Shown: positions 9,710-46,393 of the stretch, piece after piece
Numbering within the stretch: position 1 is the first letter of the stretch
How the letters are laid out: each line of letters opens with the position of its first letter
From: Klebsiella phage vB_KpM_FBKp24
DNA: 64,000 bases
Reading direction: 5' to 3' (one strand)
Sequence record: MW394391.1
Program-made: the position numbers and the translations under genes
The notes under the pieces: generated by a model
The model's database searches: none
Told to the model about the DNA's origin: nothing
Seen by the model: the letters and a program-made list of their open reading frames with translations, nothing else

Positions 9710-10648
9710 TTAATAAGATTTCTCTTGATGATTAGCCGTCATGGCGATGAGGTCATTGACGCGTCCAATAAACTCGTCGCTCTTCAACCCGCGTCCTTCG
9801 CGGTCAATCAATTGGGTCAGCCACGCTTTACGGTATTGTTTTTCCCCTGCGCAGGAAGAATAGATCATCGCGATGAACATCGGCGGGTATTCCAAAGCAA
9901 CAGCAAGCCATTCACGGACTTCTGAACTACCAAACCAGCTAGTCGAAGTCAGCGTCCAAAGAATGCGTTTGTCCATTCGTTTCAAGGACAAACTCTCGCC
10001 AAATTCCGCCAACGCTTTGCAATAATCGTCCAAGTTGGCCATGTAACCGACCGGGCGCAGCCAGACATCCAGTTTTTGAAAAGGAATGTTCAAAATACGA
10101 CTGATCTTGATACAGAAGACTTCGTGACGACGTTCGTTGAAATCCGCCTCTGCGCAATGCAGACAGTAATAGTAGTAGGCAGTGATAGCCTTTACTTTTT
10201 CACTGGTCATTTCGTTGAGGTTGAGTTTATTCTTTAATAAACCGGTCAACCACTTGGCGAAAATCGCCAGCGGTACATCGATATTGAAATAGAACGCATC
10301 AGTGTTTCCTTCGGCCCAGGCCATTTCTAACACTGCTCTGCGAAAAACAATCCCCGCTGAACCTTCATTATTAAAGTCAACAGACCCATCGCTGTTGAGA
10401 GTGAGCACATTACGGTAAGGACGTAAATCAATGTATGTATAAGGAACACCTTGAACATCCTGCGCAAACGGATGACGAAAAATAGGGATACTCTCTAACT
10501 GCGGACTCTTTTCAATGGCGGCCAGCAACCCTTTAAAACGGTTAACTGGGGTCAGCGCTCCCTCGGCTTTTGCGATCAAAAGTTTCCCCGGTAAGCTACT
10601 TGGGAAAACAGAACTACCCGCTGAAGTTTCGAAACTGTGTTTAAACAT
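9710..10648 (-). CDS. hypothetical protein (312 aa)
   Basis: ORF track; first gene of minus-strand operon, diverging from plus-strand structural genes. Confidence 0.5.
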   Translation of the reverse strand: MFKHSFETSAGSSVFPSSLPGKLLIAKAEGALTPVNRFKGLLAAIEKSPQLESIPIFRHPFAQDVQGVPYTYIDLRPYRNVLTLNSDGSVDFNNEGSAGIVFRRAVLEMAWAEGNTDAFYFNIDVPLAIFAKWLTGLLKNKLNLNEMTSEKVKAITAYYYYCLHCAEADFNERRHEVFCIKISRILNIPFQKLDVWLRPVGYMANLDDYCKALAEFGESLSLKRMDKRILWTLTSTSWFGSSEVREWLAVALEYPPMFIAMIYSSCAGEKQYRKAWLTQLIDREGRGLKSDEFIGRVNDLIAMTANHQEKSY

Positions 10649-10811
10649 TACTTAATTCTCCAATTATGGCCATACCCTACAGAATGTTAATATGACGACT
10701 TACCCTATTTACCCGTAAACTATGGTTTACAAATCCCCAAGCTTGGGACTAGCGTCACTATGACTGTACATAATTTATGCGGTACCTACTCTTTTTAAGA
10801 GGCAAAAAGAC

Positions 10812-12881
10812 ATGTCTGAACAAATCACGGGATCAACACCCAGAATTTATTACCGTGGTACGAAGGATAGTTCAGTAACTCGTTCTACGGGTTCGACGAC
10901 TACCCTTCCGCTCCATCGGCCCTTAATCATGTTCTTCGGCCAAAAAGGCCCGACCGTTCCGACATGGATCGATCCGGTGAAATTCGAAGACATCTACGGC
11001 AGCGAAACCACCAATCTGTCCGGTGTTTACTGCACCCACTCCACCCCTTTCATCAAAGAAGCGATTGCAGCTGGTAATCAGTTCATGGCACTGCGTCTGG
11101 AACCGTCCGATATTCCAGATGTAGCAACCCTTGGACTTTCTGTTGATTGGGTAAAGACCAAGATTGACGACTACGAACGCAACGACGACGGTACTTATAA
11201 GCTGGATACTAACGGCGATAAAATTCCGCTCGCCACGCAAATTGACGGGATAAAATTCCGGTTCGTTCTCGAGAAAATCGAAACCAACGAATCCGGTGTG
11301 AGCCAGTATAAAAAACGTACGGCTAAAGCCGGGACCATCGGTACCGAAGCGACGCCGTCAACGATTACTCCGCTGGCCGATTTCCGTTGCCGTTTCAAAT
11401 CGTCGCTGGGCGCTAACACTGCGCTGCGAATCTGGGCACCTACGATTAACTCCGCGCAGGCTGCTGACGCCGATTTACAGGCTCGTATCAAATCCTTCCT
11501 GTATCGCTTCCAGATTCTGACCCGCGCAGATAAAGCAAGCTCACCGACGATTTTTGAGACCATCTATAATGAACCATCATTATCGGTCGGTTTCGGGGAA
11601 AATCTGGTTGATCCACAGACCGAAGTGGTCTACGACTTCGTTGAACGAATCGACAGTCGCTATAACGATGAAGACCCGTCCACTTACCTGATGTCGCCGC
11701 TGGATACGCCGTATCTGTATCAAGCCAACATCGATAGCGTTCTGACCGCCATCCAGGAACTGGAAGCGCCGTTCGACACAGTTTCTGCCGACGAAGATGA
11801 TCTGTATCAGATTAACCTCTTCGGGGCTCAAACCGTAGAAGGCGTCCCGTACCATGCGGTGCAAATCCTGGGTGTACTCGATGGTGGCGTTACGCTGACC
11901 GAAACGGCGACCAATTACCTCCAGGGTGGCGGTGACGGTACACTGGGTAACGACAGCTTTAACGCTGCAGCGTATGCGGTACTGTCGAATCTGAGCAATA
12001 ACGCGGCGTTCAATATCACCAACTATGCGCGTTATCCGTTCAACGCATTTTGGGATTCCGGTTTCGACCTGAAAACCAAACAAACTATTCCGCAGCTGAT
12101 CGGTTTGCGTGCAGACACCTGGATCGCGCTGTCCACGCAGGATATTTCGTCGGACTTTAACTCCAACGAAGAAGAAGAGTCTATTGCGCTCTCCTTGATG
12201 TCTCGCGTCTCTGCGTTCCCGGACTCCTCTGACTTTGGTACCCCGGCATTCCGCGGTATGATTGTCGGTGGTGCAGGGTACTACACCGAAACCACCCGTA
12301 AGCTGCCGGTACCGTTGACACTGGACCGTTTCCGTGCCTACTGTCGTTATGCAGGCGCATCTGACGGAGTGCTCAAACCTGAATACGCTGTCGACGAAGG
12401 TGATGCACGTAAGGTCCAAGTTGTGAAAAGTATCAATAACCTGGATAAATCGTGGCGTGTCCGTCGCGCGCAATGGAATAACAACCTGGTCTATGTGGAA
12501 GACTACGACACCAACTCCCAGTTCTATCCGGGACAACAGTCGTTCTACTCCGAACAAGGTTCTGTTCTCAAAGCAGCAATTGTCGGTTTGTGCGTAGCCA
12601 ACCTGAACCGTTTCGCGTTTGAAGCATGGCGTGATCTCACCGGTACTCAGAAACTGACCGACGACCAACTGATCGAACGGTCTGATGACGCTGTGAGTAC
12701 TCGCGGTACGGGCGCGTTTGACGATCGCCTGATCTTTACCCCGCATTCTGAAATCACTCAGGCGGATAAAGAGCGCGGTTACAGCTGGTCTATGCGTATT
12801 GACTTCGGTGCTAACGCATTCCGCACCGTGATGGATATGTCTTCTGTCGCATACACCAGAGAGGAATTAGCAAATGGCTAA
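10812..12881 (+). CDS. major virion structural protein, tail sheath-like (tentative)
   Basis: 689 aa; strongly host-optimised codon usage (ctg, ccg, cgt, ggt) unlike surrounding genes, implying very high expression; SD aagagg before ATG; size similar to T4 gp18; sheath assignment not verifiable here. Confidence 0.6.
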   Translation: MSEQITGSTPRIYYRGTKDSSVTRSTGSTTTLPLHRPLIMFFGQKGPTVPTWIDPVKFEDIYGSETTNLSGVYCTHSTPFIKEAIAAGNQFMALRLEPSDIPDVATLGLSVDWVKTKIDDYERNDDGTYKLDTNGDKIPLATQIDGIKFRFVLEKIETNESGVSQYKKRTAKAGTIGTEATPSTITPLADFRCRFKSSLGANTALRIWAPTINSAQAADADLQARIKSFLYRFQILTRADKASSPTIFETIYNEPSLSVGFGENLVDPQTEVVYDFVERIDSRYNDEDPSTYLMSPLDTPYLYQANIDSVLTAIQELEAPFDTVSADEDDLYQINLFGAQTVEGVPYHAVQILGVLDGGVTLTETATNYLQGGGDGTLGNDSFNAAAYAVLSNLSNNAAFNITNYARYPFNAFWDSGFDLKTKQTIPQLIGLRADTWIALSTQDISSDFNSNEEEESIALSLMSRVSAFPDSSDFGTPAFRGMIVGGAGYYTETTRKLPVPLTLDRFRAYCRYAGASDGVLKPEYAVDEGDARKVQVVKSINNLDKSWRVRRAQWNNNLVYVEDYDTNSQFYPGQQSFYSEQGSVLKAAIVGLCVANLNRFAFEAWRDLTGTQKLTDDQLIERSDDAVSTRGTGAFDDRLIFTPHSEITQADKERGYSWSMRIDFGANAFRTVMDMSSVAYTREELANG

Positions 12882-13749
12882 GAAAGATCCTAACACGATC
12901 ATGAGTGCTAATAGTTCGTACGCTAACGGGGCCAATGGTTCCGTTACTAACCTGGAGATCCCAGCAGCGTTCGGCTATACGCCTGATTTTCGTTACTACC
13001 ATGCTGCGGCCGATTATACACGTCGCCCAACAATCGCGTTCCTGATGGAACTCCCCAACTGTTTCAAAGACACCGATGATGCAGCGAAATGGGGCGGTTC
13101 CCTGAAAGCGTTAATCGAGATGCATTCTCGTACAATCGATGGCCTCGACTATACGTTGGAAGTGGAACACGTTGAAACGCCATTCGGTGGCGGCGGCGAA
13201 ATGATGCAGACCTTGTCTAAGGTTCGTCGTGCTCGCTCGGTCCCGGTGTTTACCTGGGTGGAAAAAATCGGGATGCCGGTTTCCCGCTTCTGGAACAACT
13301 ATATCCTCTACTTCATGGGTGAACCTAACTCTAACGTAGCGGGTATTATCGGTAAAGGTGGAATCACTCCGGCCGCAACTTATCCGGATTATAACACTTT
13401 CTCCGTACTCTTCGTTGAACCGGATCCTACCGAACGTTACGCACTGCGTTCTACGTTGATCACCAACATGCAACCGACCGGACAAGGTCCGGAAATGCGC
13501 ATGTCGAAAGACCAGACTTCTTCGCCAGAACAGCTTCAGATCTCTCAGACCTTTACGGGTCTTCAGATGGTCGGTCGCGGTGTTGACAAACTGGGCCAGA
13601 TGATGCTCGATCGCGCATCACAAACCGGTATTGACCTGAATGCTCAACCGGCATTCCTCTCAGACCGTGAAGCCGACGTCGCTGCACGTACTGACGGTTA
13701 TATCGATCAGCTTGTCTCTTCGTTATCCAAACCGGGCGTGGCAATCTAA
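12874..13749 (+). CDS. virion structural protein (tail tube candidate), translationally coupled to upstream gene
   Basis: ATGGCTAA start/stop overlap with the 689-aa gene; SD gagagga; same optimised codon usage; strong terminator follows. Confidence 0.55.
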   Translation: MAKKDPNTIMSANSSYANGANGSVTNLEIPAAFGYTPDFRYYHAAADYTRRPTIAFLMELPNCFKDTDDAAKWGGSLKALIEMHSRTIDGLDYTLEVEHVETPFGGGGEMMQTLSKVRRARSVPVFTWVEKIGMPVSRFWNNYILYFMGEPNSNVAGIIGKGGITPAATYPDYNTFSVLFVEPDPTERYALRSTLITNMQPTGQGPEMRMSKDQTSSPEQLQISQTFTGLQMVGRGVDKLGQMMLDRASQTGIDLNAQPAFLSDREADVAARTDGYIDQLVSSLSKPGVAI

Positions 13750-22230: not shown

Positions 22231-22291
22231 ACTTTCCTCTTAGACCTCTTAGGTCAGTAAATGGATGTTTAGTTATCAGAAAAGCGTTATA

Positions 22292-22350
22292 TCTTTCCTA
22301 TTTCACTGTAGCAATATATACATCAAAAAAACTGCATTTCGATTCTTAAG
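22292..22350 (+). promoter_or_regulatory. conserved promoter/leader element, copy B
   Basis: tctttcctatttcactgtagcaatatatacatcaaaaaaactgcatttcgattctt, near-identical to copy A. Confidence 0.45.
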
Positions 22351-22388
22351 AGTTTTTATGACCCCTTCTACAACACAGGCTCTCTACG

Positions 22389-22928
22389 ATGAAAAAACTC
22401 ACTATTTGGGGACTCCCTGTCCCTTTACTCGGTTTTCTTCACTGGTTCGTTTTTCTATTGATTTATTTCTTTGCGTTAATTATTTGTGTTTTTGTCACCC
22501 CGTTCCTTCCTATTTTCGCAACTAAGGAAGGTAGACTCCCTACGTGGTTAGCCTGGTTTGATACCCCAGATAACACCCTTGATGGGGATTCAGGCTGGAA
22601 AGAGAAGCATTCGCTTTGGGTAAAATTTTTACCGGATTGGGCCGAGACTTATGTGGCCCGAGTATTCTGGTTATACCGTAACCCTCTTTATGGTTTCTCG
22701 ATCAGCGTTCTAGGGGCCCCTAAGGATAAACACCTCCAGCCGGTTCTGGACGGTAAAGGCTTTGACGTAAAAGGGACGTATAAGTCGCATTACTGGATGG
22801 TTTATTTCATGCGGGATGATCATGTCAAGAAACGCCGTTTTAAAGTGTATATCGGATGGAAACTCAAAGCGGAAGGATTTGATAAATATCAGTTCGCTTT
22901 TTTGATTAACCCTTTCCAAACGCCGTAA
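22389..22928 (+). CDS. membrane protein (179 aa)
   Basis: N-terminal TM helices; flanked by promoter repeat B and a terminator identical to the one at 1973-2010. Confidence 0.6.
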   Translation: MKKLTIWGLPVPLLGFLHWFVFLLIYFFALIICVFVTPFLPIFATKEGRLPTWLAWFDTPDNTLDGDSGWKEKHSLWVKFLPDWAETYVARVFWLYRNPLYGFSISVLGAPKDKHLQPVLDGKGFDVKGTYKSHYWMVYFMRDDHVKKRRFKVYIGWKLKAEGFDKYQFAFLINPFQTP

Positions 22929-43224: not shown

Positions 43225-43692
43225 TTATTTGGCGAGAATAGATTTACCTTTATATTCCAACATCAGCCCAGCTAAACCGATCCGTGTTTCCGCTTCCGTT
43301 ACCATTGCCTCTAAAGCAGACATCAGAGTCCGTTCTTTCGCTTTCAAGAATACCGGCTCGAAACCATCCGAGAATACATTATCGAGACTGATGCGTACCC
43401 AAACTTCACCGGTATCTTTCATGGCCACTTCCATTTCCCCGAAATCTTCACAGCGGTTCGGCGCCAAGTCTTTAAGAAACAGAATTGTTTTTCCGCACTC
43501 GTCTCCGACGATCCAGTTACTTTCGTCGAAATTCGTTAATTCTTCAAGGAGTTCGCCGGCATGATAAACAATGATAGCGTTAATACTTTCACGCATTTCA
43601 GTCACTGAGTCAGCGAATTTCTTTTCGCGTTCTTCACGAGTGTAGTTCAGAGAAGAGAAGACATTAGCAACAGCATCTTTGATCAGAGACAT
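43225..43692 (-). CDS. hypothetical protein (155 aa)
   Basis: ORF track. Confidence 0.5.
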   Translation of the reverse strand: MSLIKDAVANVFSSLNYTREEREKKFADSVTEMRESINAIIVYHAGELLEELTNFDESNWIVGDECGKTILFLKDLAPNRCEDFGEMEVAMKDTGEVWVRISLDNVFSDGFEPVFLKAKERTLMSALEAMVTEAETRIGLAGLMLEYKGKSILAK

Positions 43693-43725
43693 GTTAGGAT
43701 TCCTTAATTGGTTTAGTTAAACGGA

Positions 43726-43793
43726 AAGGTCTTTCCTTTCCTTATTCACTCTGGCTATATATACTTTAAAAAAAGTGCATTTCGATTCTTATG
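43726..43793 (+). promoter_or_regulatory. conserved promoter/leader element, copy C
   Basis: aaaggtctttcctttcc...ctggctatatatactttaaaaaaagtgcatttcgattctt shares 5-prime block, TATATAC box and tgcatttcgattctt leader with copies A and B. Confidence 0.45.
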
Positions 43794-43827
43794 AATTTTC
43801 AACTGACTAATAAAGGCTGAGCGCTTT

Positions 43828-45288
43828 ATGGACGTAATTATCGATGGTAAACGTTATATCCCGGAAGAACACGCTTCCCGTAAAATCGGTATCGCGATCT
43901 CCACGCGTAATCGACACGACGTACTAAAGAAAACCCTCGCTGAGCACGCCAAGTTCCTCCCCCCTAATGCGGTAATCTATATTGTCGATGATGGTTCGGA
44001 TACCCCGGTACAAGCTCCTGATTGGGCCGCTGTTCATCGTCATGAAAAAAGTGAAGGGATAGTAGCCGTTAAGAATACATCGCTTCGCCTTTTGATTGAC
44101 GCCGGCTGCGAGCATTTGTATCTGTGGGACGACGACGCCTACCCGATTGCTGATAACTGGTGGGTTCCGTATATGTTGTCACCAGAACCCCATCTCGGAT
44201 ATCAGTTTAAAGACCTAGCGGGAAAAAGAAAAATAAATGACGTTATTGAAGTGTATAATGACGGGAAACATTTTGCACTTTCAGGGCAGCGTGGAGTTAT
44301 GCTCTATTACCACAAATCGGCGATTGATAAAGTCGGTGGTTTCGATCCAATTTATCAACGAGGGATGTATGAGCACGTCGACCTTGCCCTGCGTATTCAT
44401 AACGCAGGTTTAACCACATTCCCGTTTGGTGACGTCGTCGGAAGTAACCGACTTATCCATTCCATGGACGAATACGAAGAGGTTGCGCGGTCTGTTCCGC
44501 CAGCGGATCGTCAACAGCAGGTGGAAAGAAACGTTAAGATTTATACGGCGCGCCGTAAGAGCCAGTACGCCGGTTATGCGCCTTATCGCAAAGCCCGTCG
44601 GGTAGTCGCCACCGCGCTATTAACCGCTTGTACTGACCCACAACGTCAGAATACTCACATGGCAGCAAGTAGTGCTCTACTACAGACGTGGGCAGAGAGT
44701 ATTAAAGGTGCAGAGAAGATTGTTTTTGCAGATCAGCTATCCGATATGTCTGGTGTGACAATAATCAAAGTACCAGAGGTAAGAAATCTTTCCCCGTATT
44801 TTCTCCGCTGGCTGCACATTTACCAGTGGCTGCGTGATAACCCAGATGTTACCCAAATATGGTGTACAGACGGCACCGATGTCAAAATGCTCAAAGAACC
44901 TTGGGATGAAATGGAACCGGGGAAAGTTTATGTCGGAAATGAACATACGACATACGCCAACCCTTGGTTTGACAAAGTCAATTACCAGAAGTATTTGAAA
45001 AACTTTATTACCGCCAACAAAAATGAACAGGTGGTCAACGCAGGGTTAATCGGCGGTTCCAGAGAAGACGTTATGCAACTGGCTCACGGAATGATTGCCC
45101 AAGTGTGGAAAATGAAATCCGAGATCTTCTGGCGAGAAGAACTCGCCCCTGAGTCAGTGACGGACATGGTTATGTTCGGTATCGAAGCGAAGAAGTTTGG
45201 CGATCGATTAGTGCACGGCCCTATTGTCAACACCGTTTTTAAAGGTAACGAACACGGTAAAGATATCGCTTGGTTTGCGCATAAATGA
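43828..45288 (+). CDS. two-domain glycosyltransferase (N-terminal GT2 family GT-A fold + C-terminal nucleotide-sugar transferase-like domain)
   Basis: GT2 signatures IAISTRNRHDVL...IYIVDDGSD, DxD YLWDDDAY, and C-motif DKVGGFDPIY..GMYEHVDLALRIHNAGL; second half has WCTDGTDV DxD-like motif; host-like GC-rich codon usage. Confidence 0.8.
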   Translation: MDVIIDGKRYIPEEHASRKIGIAISTRNRHDVLKKTLAEHAKFLPPNAVIYIVDDGSDTPVQAPDWAAVHRHEKSEGIVAVKNTSLRLLIDAGCEHLYLWDDDAYPIADNWWVPYMLSPEPHLGYQFKDLAGKRKINDVIEVYNDGKHFALSGQRGVMLYYHKSAIDKVGGFDPIYQRGMYEHVDLALRIHNAGLTTFPFGDVVGSNRLIHSMDEYEEVARSVPPADRQQQVERNVKIYTARRKSQYAGYAPYRKARRVVATALLTACTDPQRQNTHMAASSALLQTWAESIKGAEKIVFADQLSDMSGVTIIKVPEVRNLSPYFLRWLHIYQWLRDNPDVTQIWCTDGTDVKMLKEPWDEMEPGKVYVGNEHTTYANPWFDKVNYQKYLKNFITANKNEQVVNAGLIGGSREDVMQLAHGMIAQVWKMKSEIFWREELAPESVTDMVMFGIEAKKFGDRLVHGPIVNTVFKGNEHGKDIAWFAHK

Positions 45289-45306
45289 TCTTAGGAGGGG
45301 TTAAGA

Positions 45307-45897
45307 ATGAAAATTGCGGTCGTTGGCCACGTTTCAAGACTCTCTGCGATCGAAAGACTTGTTTCGGCTCTTCCGTGCGAAGTCTTTATGGACAGTGTAG
45401 GGAAAGGGGCTTTACACAATCACCTGAGGGCATTACGTTGGGCGGCAGAACAAAATGAGCGTGTAGTGATCATGGAAGATGACGCCATCCCCGTTACGTC
45501 TTTTATTGAAAAAGCAGAGAAATGGTTTTCGCTATTTCCCGATCAATTTCTTTCTTTTTATTTGGGGACGAGCCGTCCACCTCAATACCAGAAGTTAATC
45601 GATCATTCCATAGAAGACTCCAAAAAGCTCAACCGTCAATTCATTTGGTTGAACCAGTTGATTCACGGTGTCTGTTACTCCCCAGTTCCCGGGACAATTC
45701 AAGATATCGTTGATAAAATCGATATGAATAAACCAGCGGACTTCGCTATAGGTTCTGCTTGGGGTAAATCTGTCTATTACCCTATCAGGTCACTTGTAGA
45801 GCACCGTGACGGTAGATCGGTAGAGAAACACACCGATGGCAGGAAAAAATCTGGTGTGCGAGTAGCGCGCTTCCTAGACGGTAATTTACAGTACTAA
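45307..45897 (+). CDS. glycosyltransferase, GT25-like (LPS/LOS glycosyltransferase family)
   Basis: Pattern HL(x)A...A......VVIMEDDAIPV typical of glycosyltransferase family 25 N-terminal region; SD aggagggg; co-transcribed with upstream GT. Confidence 0.55.
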   Translation: MKIAVVGHVSRLSAIERLVSALPCEVFMDSVGKGALHNHLRALRWAAEQNERVVIMEDDAIPVTSFIEKAEKWFSLFPDQFLSFYLGTSRPPQYQKLIDHSIEDSKKLNRQFIWLNQLIHGVCYSPVPGTIQDIVDKIDMNKPADFAIGSAWGKSVYYPIRSLVEHRDGRSVEKHTDGRKKSGVRVARFLDGNLQY

Positions 45898-45914
45898 AAT
45901 AAAAAGATCAGAGC

Positions 45915-45955
45915 ACAACTCCTCCCGTAGCAGAACGCTACGGGAGGAGAGTGTT
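45915..45955. terminator. hairpin terminator (ctcctcccgtag/ctacgggaggag), stronger on minus strand
   Basis: 12-bp stem; T-run on minus-strand side. Confidence 0.55.
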
Positions 45956-45958
45956 ATC

Positions 45959-46393
45959 TTACTGAACTAACGTCACGCCTTCAAAGCCATCGACCGAATA
46001 CCCTCGACATTTAACGAAGGTGATGTCGTACGCAAGTTTACCCAGATTGAACAGCGCGTCGCCAAGATCAATCCGTTCAACTTCGATTGCACAACTCCCT
46101 TCAAAGAGGTAGATAGGTATACCCTTCTCGGCCACAAAGACAATCCGTTTACCGGAAAGCTCGGCGTCGGCTTTCGCCTTTTTGATCTCAGCCATCAAGT
46201 CGACCGCCTTTAGTTCCCCGTGTTCGCTGTGCAAGAAGAGGATAACGTCCTCCTTTAATTCCGGTACGACACCGGAAAGGAAAGTTTCTGCTTCAGCGCA
46301 ATCTTCCCCGATAATCGACAAAGAATGTTGAGACTTTAAAAACTGAACGAATAACTGTTTAACGGGGGTCACGCAAAACTCCTTAGCTGACAA
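45959..46393 (-). CDS. hypothetical protein (144 aa)
   Basis: ORF track. Confidence 0.5.
   Translation of the reverse strand: MSAKEFCVTPVKQLFVQFLKSQHSLSIIGEDCAEAETFLSGVVPELKEDVILFLHSEHGELKAVDLMAEIKKAKADAELSGKRIVFVAEKGIPIYLFEGSCAIEVERIDLGDALFNLGKLAYDITFVKCRGYSVDGFEGVTLVQ

Follow-up and report, generated by a model that had tools for sequence, protein, structure and literature searches.

A two-gene glycosyltransferase cassette in a Klebsiella jumbo phage as a putative virion O-glycosylation system

Klebsiella phage vB_KpM_FBKp24 (sequence record MW394391.1) carries, in the 64,000-nt stretch analysed here (the window), two adjacent plus-strand genes for predicted glycosyltransferases (GTs) of 486 and 196 residues, which we call GT486 and GT196. 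Judged by homology, this cassette is a new member of the known family of phage virion-glycosylation genes, and both the kind of phage and the kind of host are new for that family. We think it probable that the pair catalyses O-glycosylation of abundant, surface-exposed virion proteins from nucleotide sugars of the host. The locus contains the following features:

43711..43799, plus strand: conserved ~89-nt intergenic element, seen in three aligned copies, ending ~30 nt before the GT486 start
43828..45288, plus strand: GT486, 486 aa, open reading frame (ORF) with a full-length PHROG 1579 match; predicted soluble glycosyltransferase with two GT-A domains
43876..44589, plus strand: N-terminal GT2-like GT-A domain of GT486, ~aa 17-254; PF00535 (sub-threshold) and PHROG 2456
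44590..45285, plus strand: C-terminal GT-A domain of GT486, ~aa 255-486, modelled as a retaining, GT6/GT8-like type
45293..45298, plus strand: Shine-Dalgarno sequence AGGAGG, 8 nt 5' of the GT196 start codon, read from the sequence
45307..45897, plus strand: GT196, 196 aa, single-domain GT-A protein with an EDD motif (E57-D58-D59); Che8 gp110 / Corndog gp38 family
45919..45949, no strand assigned: GC-rich hairpin with a 13-bp stem between convergent genes, from a terminator-like scan and RNA folding

The gene pair and its predicted enzymes

GT486 and GT196 are likely to form a two-gene operon, because only 18 nt separate the GT486 stop from GT196. They make up a plus-strand island amid minus-strand genes (68 of the 79 long ORFs in the window are on the minus strand), and a minus-strand gene at 45959-46393 converges on GT196. 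Another plus-strand island, at 10812-13749, holds the tail sheath gene (2070 bp) and a putative tail tube gene; neither product ends in serine. The initial annotation of the locus had described the cassette as GC-richer than its surroundings, with codons preferred by E. coli, and had traced it to an enterobacterial lipopolysaccharide (LPS) locus. Neither claim held. GC content and GC at third codon positions (GC3) are 0.472 and 0.470 for GT486 and 0.450 and 0.447 for GT196, against 0.440±0.035 and 0.464±0.056 for the 79 window genes, so that both genes lie within one standard deviation on both measures, and a leave-one-out synonymous-codon log-likelihood places both in the middle of the distribution for the same 79 genes. 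Since their composition is ordinary for the window, host-like codon usage and acquisition from an LPS locus are unsupported, and we reject a recent transfer of that kind. The bacterial homologs lie in prophage late operons beside HNH, terminase and capsid genes; in Klebsiella oxytoca, for example, the homolog is in such an operon, followed by HNH, terminase and protease-capsid fusion genes, and is not in an LPS locus.

The window is ~95% identical to Klebsiella phage vB_KpM_Centimanus (299,730 bp). Centimanus encodes a nuclear-shell protein (chimallin), the tubulin PhuZ and split multisubunit RNA polymerases, and is thus a nucleus-forming jumbo phage of the chimallivirus type. Ten further ~300-kb Klebsiella phages, of the KpLz-2_45 group in the genus Siatvirus, carry homologs that are 74-84% identical to the pair. 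Within its tRNA gene cluster, Centimanus also has a gene annotated 'tRNA-Stop(tta)' (00118; stretch L008, 21400-21483), possibly a suppressor tRNA.

PHROG 1579 ('glycosyltransferase') covers GT486 over its full length (E 2e-202), and most of its 683 homologs are 485-486 aa long. An AlphaFold model of the protein has a pLDDT of 77, with low confidence in the loops at 108-155 and 197-223. The N-terminal domain carries the motifs DDGS (D54-S57), WDDDA with its DxD (D101-D103) and E182-H-V-D185-L-A-L-R189, an ExxDLxxR-like segment; these are invariant in 38 homologs. PHROG 2456 matches residues 18-254 (E 4e-51), PF00535 matches residues 22-106 below its cutoff (E 0.005; 17.2 bits against 23.3), and NCBIfam gives weak matches to MftF and EpsD. 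Several GT486 homologs have a precomputed PF00535 match and the NCBI name 'glycosyltransferase family 2'. Residues 255-486 have no match in Pfam or NCBIfam. The nearest structural neighbours of this C-terminal domain are GT6 or GT8 enzymes, and in the model it is like the retaining enzymes of that type; its invariant residues include W345, D348-G-T-D351-V, N404-A-G and G409-G. When the whole chain was searched with Foldseek, the best matches (E 3e-9 to 1e-7) were PmHS2 of Pasteurella and K4CP of E. coli, which also place two GT-A domains on one polypeptide. These two enzymes differ in being processive glycosaminoglycan polymerases, and at 9-13% identity and TM-scores of ~0.3 the match supports the architecture of GT486, not a common function.

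GT196 is modelled as a compact GT-A domain (pLDDT 91) in which the EDD motif follows the strand at 53-57, with E57 and D59 invariant. Its closest solved structures are Mimivirus R655, POMGnT1, GnT-I and STIV A197, and a GT25 enzyme comes ninth. The protein belongs to PHROG 854, labelled 'glucosyltransferase', and no model in Pfam or NCBIfam matches it. Thus, where the initial annotation had seen a resemblance to GT25 enzymes of LPS and lipooligosaccharide (LOS) synthesis, membership of GT25 (PF01755) is unsupported, as GT196 does not match its profile. Its wider proposal, of a three-domain GT-A cassette that could build a short glycan, is borne out at the level of fold. Both ORFs and all of the motifs it quoted (IYIVDDGSD, DDD, VDLALRIHNAGL and VVIMEDDAIPV) are present, and the structure comparison it recommended recovered GT-A folds for all three domains, each a single Rossmann-like alpha/beta/alpha sandwich. 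Each also has a conserved acidic motif of the kind that binds metal and nucleotide sugar: D101-D102-D103 in the N-terminal domain of GT486, E57-D58-D59 in GT196, and D348-x-x-D351, a DxxD and not a strict DxD, in the C-terminal domain of GT486. Neither protein has a transmembrane or hydrophobic segment (maximum KD19 of GT486, 0.93).

Enzymes of this kind could act on DNA, glycosylating hydroxymethylated bases as a defence against restriction in the style of the T4 alpha- and beta-GT or of GT-A enzymes associated with TET/JBP. The N-terminal domain of GT486 gives a weak match to TAGT (PF20691; E 0.079), the R...DDD...ED motifs of DNA-modifying GT-A enzymes resemble its R29...D101-D103...E182 (bioRxiv 10.1101/2023.12.21.572611), and the PHROG label of GT196 is 'glucosyltransferase'. 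Yet at 13.3 bits the TAGT match is far under the 27.5-bit cutoff, and the likeness to DNA base glycosyltransferases (T4 alpha/beta-GT, TAGT and JGT-like enzymes) is that of phage-encoded sugar transferases with a generic GT-A motif pattern; all three domains are GT-A, whereas the T4 enzymes are GT-B. The partners that would make hydroxymethylcytosine or hydroxymethyluracil are also missing from the annotation of Centimanus, which over the 290 kb before the last 10 kb of the 300-kb genome lists neither a TET/JBP dioxygenase nor a C5-methyltransferase or hydroxymethylase; the initial annotation had advised looking for hydroxymethylases outside the window. Instead, Centimanus encodes a ThyA homolog that passes the TIGR03284 cutoff for thymidylate synthase, together with dihydrofolate reductase (DHFR), dTMP kinase, thymidine kinase and dUTPase, a set that indicates canonical thymine DNA. 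In nucleus-forming phages the DNA is enclosed by a protective protein shell, and chimallin and PhuZ are present in Centimanus. The cassette is moreover common in HK97-like lambdoid prophages, at whose loci we found no hydroxymethylase, TET or C5-methyltransferase among those examined. We therefore regard DNA as a very improbable target, in agreement with the low rank it was first given. At 461 aa, the thymidylate synthase homolog itself (00319; stretch L010, 20557-21942) carries large insertions when compared with bacterial enzymes of ~264 aa, and it retains the PCH and N-type dUMP motifs.

Upstream of GT486, the ~89-nt element consists of a short hairpin GGAAAGGTCTTTCC, a TATATATAC box, an A-tract and a core TGCATTTCGATTCTTA. 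Three copies of the 34-nt core lie in the window, where shuffles predict none (656-689, 22315-22348 and 43758-43791, all on the plus strand; aligned element windows 585-735, 22244-22394 and 43687-43837). Although the genome is coded mostly on the minus strand, every copy is directly 5' of a plus-strand gene or island. In 289 kb of Centimanus there are just three copies, at equivalent places and each 5' of a plus-strand island, and the genes behind the other two copies are hypothetical (Centimanus 00185 and 00212). In phage KpYy_2_45 a diverged form of the element precedes the GT486 homolog. The element is probably a phage promoter or 5' leader of the cassette, and the region is possibly one of divergent promoters; it resembles a mobile promoter/stem-loop cassette. 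The upstream intergenic region contains no sigma-70 promoter, site counts being equal to those of shuffles, and an Rfam search of 43600-46000 gave nothing meaningful. Downstream, the hairpin at 45919-45949 (dG -33.8 kcal/mol, z = -8.8) is matched in stability by 0 of 200 shuffles, and in KpYy_2_45 a hairpin of similar position and strength, though of other sequence, follows the GT196 homolog (stretch L013, ~10610-10660). It is probably a bidirectional transcription terminator. Thus the strong 3' hairpin and the conserved 5' block, a predicted promoter, make the claim that the cassette has its own promoter element and terminator a reasonable one. Next to the element, at ~43693-43710, the 95% identity to Centimanus is interrupted by an indel of ~715 bp: after the left neighbour and before the element, Centimanus carries a further minus-strand gene of 612 bp (00248; stretch L001, 20797-21408) that is absent from the window.

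Relatives in mycobacteriophages and enterobacterial phages

In tblastn searches of 50,697 phage records, GT486 matched 604 and GT196 matched 676, the great majority from Mycobacterium phages, chiefly of clusters F and C. The remaining matches came from some Gordonia phages, the jumbo group, and HK97-like/lambdoid enterobacterial, Cronobacter, Salmonella and Aeromonas phages. GT196 is related to Che8 gp110 (27% identity, E 6e-17), Corndog gp38 (E 2e-10) and Rita gp103 (27% identity, E 1e-18). In Rita, a cluster F1 phage, gp101 is a homolog of GT486 with 45% identity over the full length, and the two genes stand in the same order, followed by an HNH gene; an equivalent gene, likewise homologous to GT486, occurs in ~380 cluster F phages. 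The window, too, has a gp110-family glycosyltransferase with a second glycosyltransferase, GT486, directly upstream. GT486 has no detectable relationship to Che8 gp108 or gp109 (hhalign probability <4%), so that GT196 is the only component in common with Che8.

According to PMC12363180, which cites Freeman et al. 2023 (Cell Host Microbe 31:1216), Che8 gp110 and Corndog gp38 are essential enzymes for capsid glycosylation. Other papers, PMC12619734 among them, sum up that study as finding that capsid and tail-tube subunits bear O-linked glycans at their C-termini and that these protect the virion from antibodies. PMC11256854 names Rita, on the strength of a poster, as a phage whose capsid protein carries a glycan. 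Glycosylation is not mentioned in the Rita genome announcement.

The mycobacteriophage system (Che8 gp108-110, Corndog gp35-38, Rita gp101/gp103) and the jumbo-phage cassette are therefore alike in their GT196 homologs, in the GT486 counterpart of Rita and other cluster F phages, and in having as candidate acceptors abundant surface proteins with C-terminal serine tails, as in Che8 and Corndog. They differ in setting. The host here is Gram-negative and the phage a virulent, 300-kb nucleus-forming myovirus, whereas the mycobacteriophages are temperate siphoviruses; here the cassette is outside the structural/late block and a methyltransferase is absent; and the tail tube is untagged, the candidates being the capsid protein and a DUF7941 fibre subunit. 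Virion glycans have been reported for the mycobacteriophages, whereas here the system is known from its genes. A more distant parallel is the capsid glycosylation of chlorovirus PBCV-1 by A64R and A111/114R, a eukaryotic virus with atypical N-linked glycans whose enzymes are similar at the level of fold only.

The closest relatives outside the jumbo phages are gene pairs of HK97-like/lambdoid phages (HK542 gp54/gp55, ECP1 gp22/gp23, mEp390, ENT39118 and ENT47670 gp40/gp20), which have the same two-gene architecture, 55% and 46% identity, and soluble products annotated merely as glycosyltransferase or glucosyltransferase. Our literature search found no functional study of these pairs, nor any paper that deals with the KpLz-2_45 group or with glycosylated virions of enterobacterial phages. 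In HK542 and ECP1 the late operon holds the pair, with the lysis genes on one side and HNH/terminase on the other. HK97 has a matching late region and a capsid protein identical to that of HK542, and lacks the pair there. In Cronobacter phage ENT47670 (stretch L011, 39577-42143 and 4622-7334) the pair directly follows the major tail gene and precedes the tail chaperone and tape-measure genes, and in Corndog the GT196 homolog is between the portal and protease genes. Thus, in HK542, ECP1, ENT47670, Corndog, Che8 and the prophages, the cassette is part of a late or structural block.

These contexts bear on a second alternative, in which the pair modifies a host envelope glycan during infection (the LPS core, O-antigen or a capsule intermediate) and so excludes superinfection or masks a receptor. 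Phage-encoded glycan conversion is well known; GT2, GT8 and GT25-like folds are typical of LPS/LOS biosynthesis enzymes, which often are peripheral proteins without transmembrane segments. However, temperate relatives carry the cassette past the lysis genes of the late operon, which is not the position of a lysogenic-conversion gene, and ENT47670 has a separate gtrABC module for O-antigen conversion beside it. The lack of hydrophobic segments in GT486 and GT196 is also unlike the membrane proteins of a Gtr module, GtrA (flippase), GtrB (bactoprenol GT) and GtrC. Homologs span phages of Mycobacterium, Gordonia, enterobacteria and Aeromonas, hosts with unrelated envelopes, and those in bacteria are in prophages and not in LPS loci; what covaries with the cassette is a C-terminal tag on virion proteins, described below. 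An envelope target is accordingly unlikely. The receptor modification and superinfection exclusion that had been offered as one of three roles for the cassette find no specific support, and late-operon position, the separate gtrABC and the host spread oppose them.

Serine-ended virion proteins in cassette-bearing phages

To look for a common target, we surveyed 80 IMG/VR loci centred on GT196 homologs (1830 ORFs). The commonest C-terminal dipeptide was glycine-serine (-GS), found on 99 of the 1830 ORFs, against ~8.5 expected from composition. It ends 42 of 42 HK97-type capsid proteins and 28 of 31 tail-tube proteins, and the residues before it vary. The same ending is found on unrelated families, among them the Peptidase_S78-capsid fusion, two Gp13-like capsid proteins, TTP_11, TTP_13, Phage_tail_2, Phage_tail_3 and a gp6-like connector. 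In individual phages, the capsid and tail-tube proteins of Che8 end in ...KTGS and ...SDGS, the capsid and tail proteins of HK542 in ...SSGS and ...ASGS, those of Corndog in -GS and -DS, and those of ENT47670 in -TS and -SS. The common denominator is a terminal serine, mostly after glycine.

Among prophage-like IMG/VR contigs (L181-L260) that encode the ~644-aa Peptidase_S78-capsid fusion, all 65 loci with at least 4.5 kb of upstream DNA carry the GT pair, and the fusion proteins of these 65 end in -GS (39) or -TS (26). The linkage of this capsid family to the pair is unusually tight. One HK97-like locus without the GTs has a capsid protein ending in ...FSAD, and tail proteins in GT-less phages of the HK97-like group have an Ig-like extension instead of a -GS tail. 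The HK97-like major tail protein in fact comes in two forms, which either stop at ...GKP-x(5-7)-GS or continue from the same point into an Ig-like C-terminal domain (L096, L100, which is HK97, L102, L118, L122 and L123, compared with most other loci among L094-L172); the extended form prevails where the cassette is absent. This hints that the glycan tag and the Ig-like domain may be alternative decorations of the tail surface.

Taken together, the comparisons are strong evidence that the cassette would act on a C-terminal serine tag of major virion proteins, a reading that agrees with the C-terminal position reported for the mycobacteriophage glycans. The homology to Che8 gp110 and Rita gp101-gp103 and the serine tags on capsid and tail proteins are why we favour, among the three roles first offered for the cassette, the glycosylation of virion proteins.

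If the same holds for the jumbo phage, suitable acceptors should be recognisable in its proteome. Among the window ORFs of 60 aa or more, none has a -GS ending, which suggests that any acceptor is encoded elsewhere in the genome. With the rule relaxed to [G/T/S/A]-S, 6 of 353 Centimanus ORFs have such an ending, including the major capsid protein and CENTIMANUS_00056. The capsid protein ends in ...NETQVTPAS (pattern in the clade, ...NETQV(T/V)PAS). CENTIMANUS_00056 is a truncated DUF7941 protein of 180 aa ending in ...DGFSAGS (clade pattern, ...DGF(x0-3)GS), and its family keeps the -GS through indels (SAGS, AAGS, GS and VDSGS). At E<=1e-3, tblastn with 00056 matches only the 11 cassette-bearing genomes. 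In KpLz-2_45 the capsid and DUF7941 proteins end in ...VPAS and ...DGFGS. Serratia phage Moabite represents the closest clade without the cassette, and there the syntenic short paralog ends in ...GGFDAPAA and the capsid protein in ...GEAPKP.

CENTIMANUS_00056 adjoins a full-length DUF7941 paralog and a phiKZ gp139-like gene (00055-00057; stretch L007, 9981-12426). The short paralog is 35% identical to Moabite gp280 and the long one 72% identical to its counterpart; the arrangement of 00055-00057 is the same in Moabite, and as described for Goslar gp22/gp23. In Goslar, a related chimallivirus in which the two DUF7941 genes are also adjacent, ~580 copies of the full-length gp22 and ~2140 of the truncated gp23 are reported per virion, and the two are proposed to form head-to-tail filaments that make up a 'fibre cloud' at the peripheral baseplate (bioRxiv 10.64898/2026.04.21.720040). 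A search of PDB sequences found no true homologs of GT486, GT196 or the DUF7941 candidate. Another Centimanus protein with a -GS ending, 00288, was dropped as an acceptor because it is found in that one genome alone. In this single clade comparison, it is suggestive that what are likely the two most abundant exposed proteins are serine-tailed specifically in the clade that bears the cassette.

Several observations weigh against virion glycosylation in the jumbo phage. First, the cassette is outside any late or structural block; its neighbours are small hypothetical genes and phoH, none of them virion genes. Second, the tags are imperfect. Under the strict -GS rule none of the capsid, sheath and tube proteins qualifies (the Centimanus sheath ends in ...ANG and the tube in ...VAI, neither in serine), the three -GS endings in the genome, against ~1.5 expected, are not significant alone, and the relaxed rule was chosen post hoc. 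Third, HK97 and HK022 keep a capsid -SSGS without having the cassette, so the serine tag is not sufficient evidence of glycosylation, and there is only a small, closely related set of GT-negative controls: nearly all of the 80 HK97-type capsid loci and 80 fusion-capsid loci that came closest are GT-positive, so that the association of tag and cassette is drawn without a large negative set.

The same gene neighbourhood could point to a target that is not part of the virion, such as an intracellular protein of host or phage or a small molecule (a defence factor, signal or metabolite). The genes around the jumbo-phage cassette are not structural: they are small hypothetical ones that look early, and auxiliary metabolic ones (phoH, tdk, NAMPT and phosphoribosyl pyrophosphate (PRPP) synthetase). 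The cassette's upstream element is common to only two other genes, both hypothetical. However, no known family of such a kind matches, and virion targets explain more simply the occurrence of the pair across phyla together with tagged capsid and tail proteins, and the genetics reported for Che8 gp110. We consider a non-virion target rather unlikely.

A putative route to glycosylated virions

How might two soluble enzymes glycosylate a jumbo-phage virion? We infer the identity of the acceptors, the order of action, the sugars and the biological role as follows. GT486 and GT196 would together be a soluble, cytoplasmic O-glycosylation system with three predicted catalytic domains, acting in the cytoplasm, where a nucleus-forming phage makes its virion proteins. 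UDP- or dTDP-sugars of the host would be the donors, as no sugar-nucleotide genes are annotated nearby. GT196 would prime the acceptor by placing the first sugar on a serine at or near the extreme C-terminus, on a flexible tail of the -GS, -TS, -SS or -AS type; this step is assigned to GT196 because it is the sole component common to all versions of the cassette and its counterparts in Che8 and Corndog are reportedly essential. The inverting GT2-like and retaining GT6/GT8-like domains of GT486 could then extend the sugar to a di- or trisaccharide or a short chain. The acceptors would be the major capsid protein and the short, gp23-like DUF7941 fibre subunit, and the resulting glycan coat, by analogy with the mycobacteriophages, may shield or alter the virion surface in antibody recognition and in contacts with surfaces or polysaccharides.

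More tentatively, the gp110-family cassette could be a portable virion-glycosylation module for proteins with a flexible, serine-ended tail (mostly -GS), distributed far outside the actinobacteriophages, for example in many HK97-like enterobacterial prophages and the Klebsiella jumbo clade. In the latter it might coat the capsid and a DUF7941 'fibre cloud' of, on the Goslar analogy, ~2000 subunits per virion, and glycosylated virions would thereby be seen for the first time in phages of Gram-negative bacteria.

Freeman et al., in 2023, reportedly saw little sign of virion glycosylation outside actinobacteriophages, and are said to have found that glycosylation lowered antibody binding and neutralisation. 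Glycosylated virions in Gram-negative phages, if true, would surprise specialists. For the window alone the practical value is modest: related genomes already annotate both genes as glycosyltransferases, and 'glycosyltransferase / glucosyltransferase' would become 'putative virion protein O-glycosylation enzymes'. If the proposal is right, HK542 and HK97, with identical capsid proteins and the cassette present in one and absent in the other, would amount to a natural experiment in E. coli, and the two genes combined with a terminal -GS tag would give that organism a compact means of O-glycosylating proteins site-specifically, so that phage or recombinant proteins could be glycosylated as desired. 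The Klebsiella jumbo phages that are of interest for therapy, together with many common enterobacterial prophages, would then be glycan-shielded, and such a shield would bear on their immunogenicity, pharmacokinetics and interactions with host or mucus.

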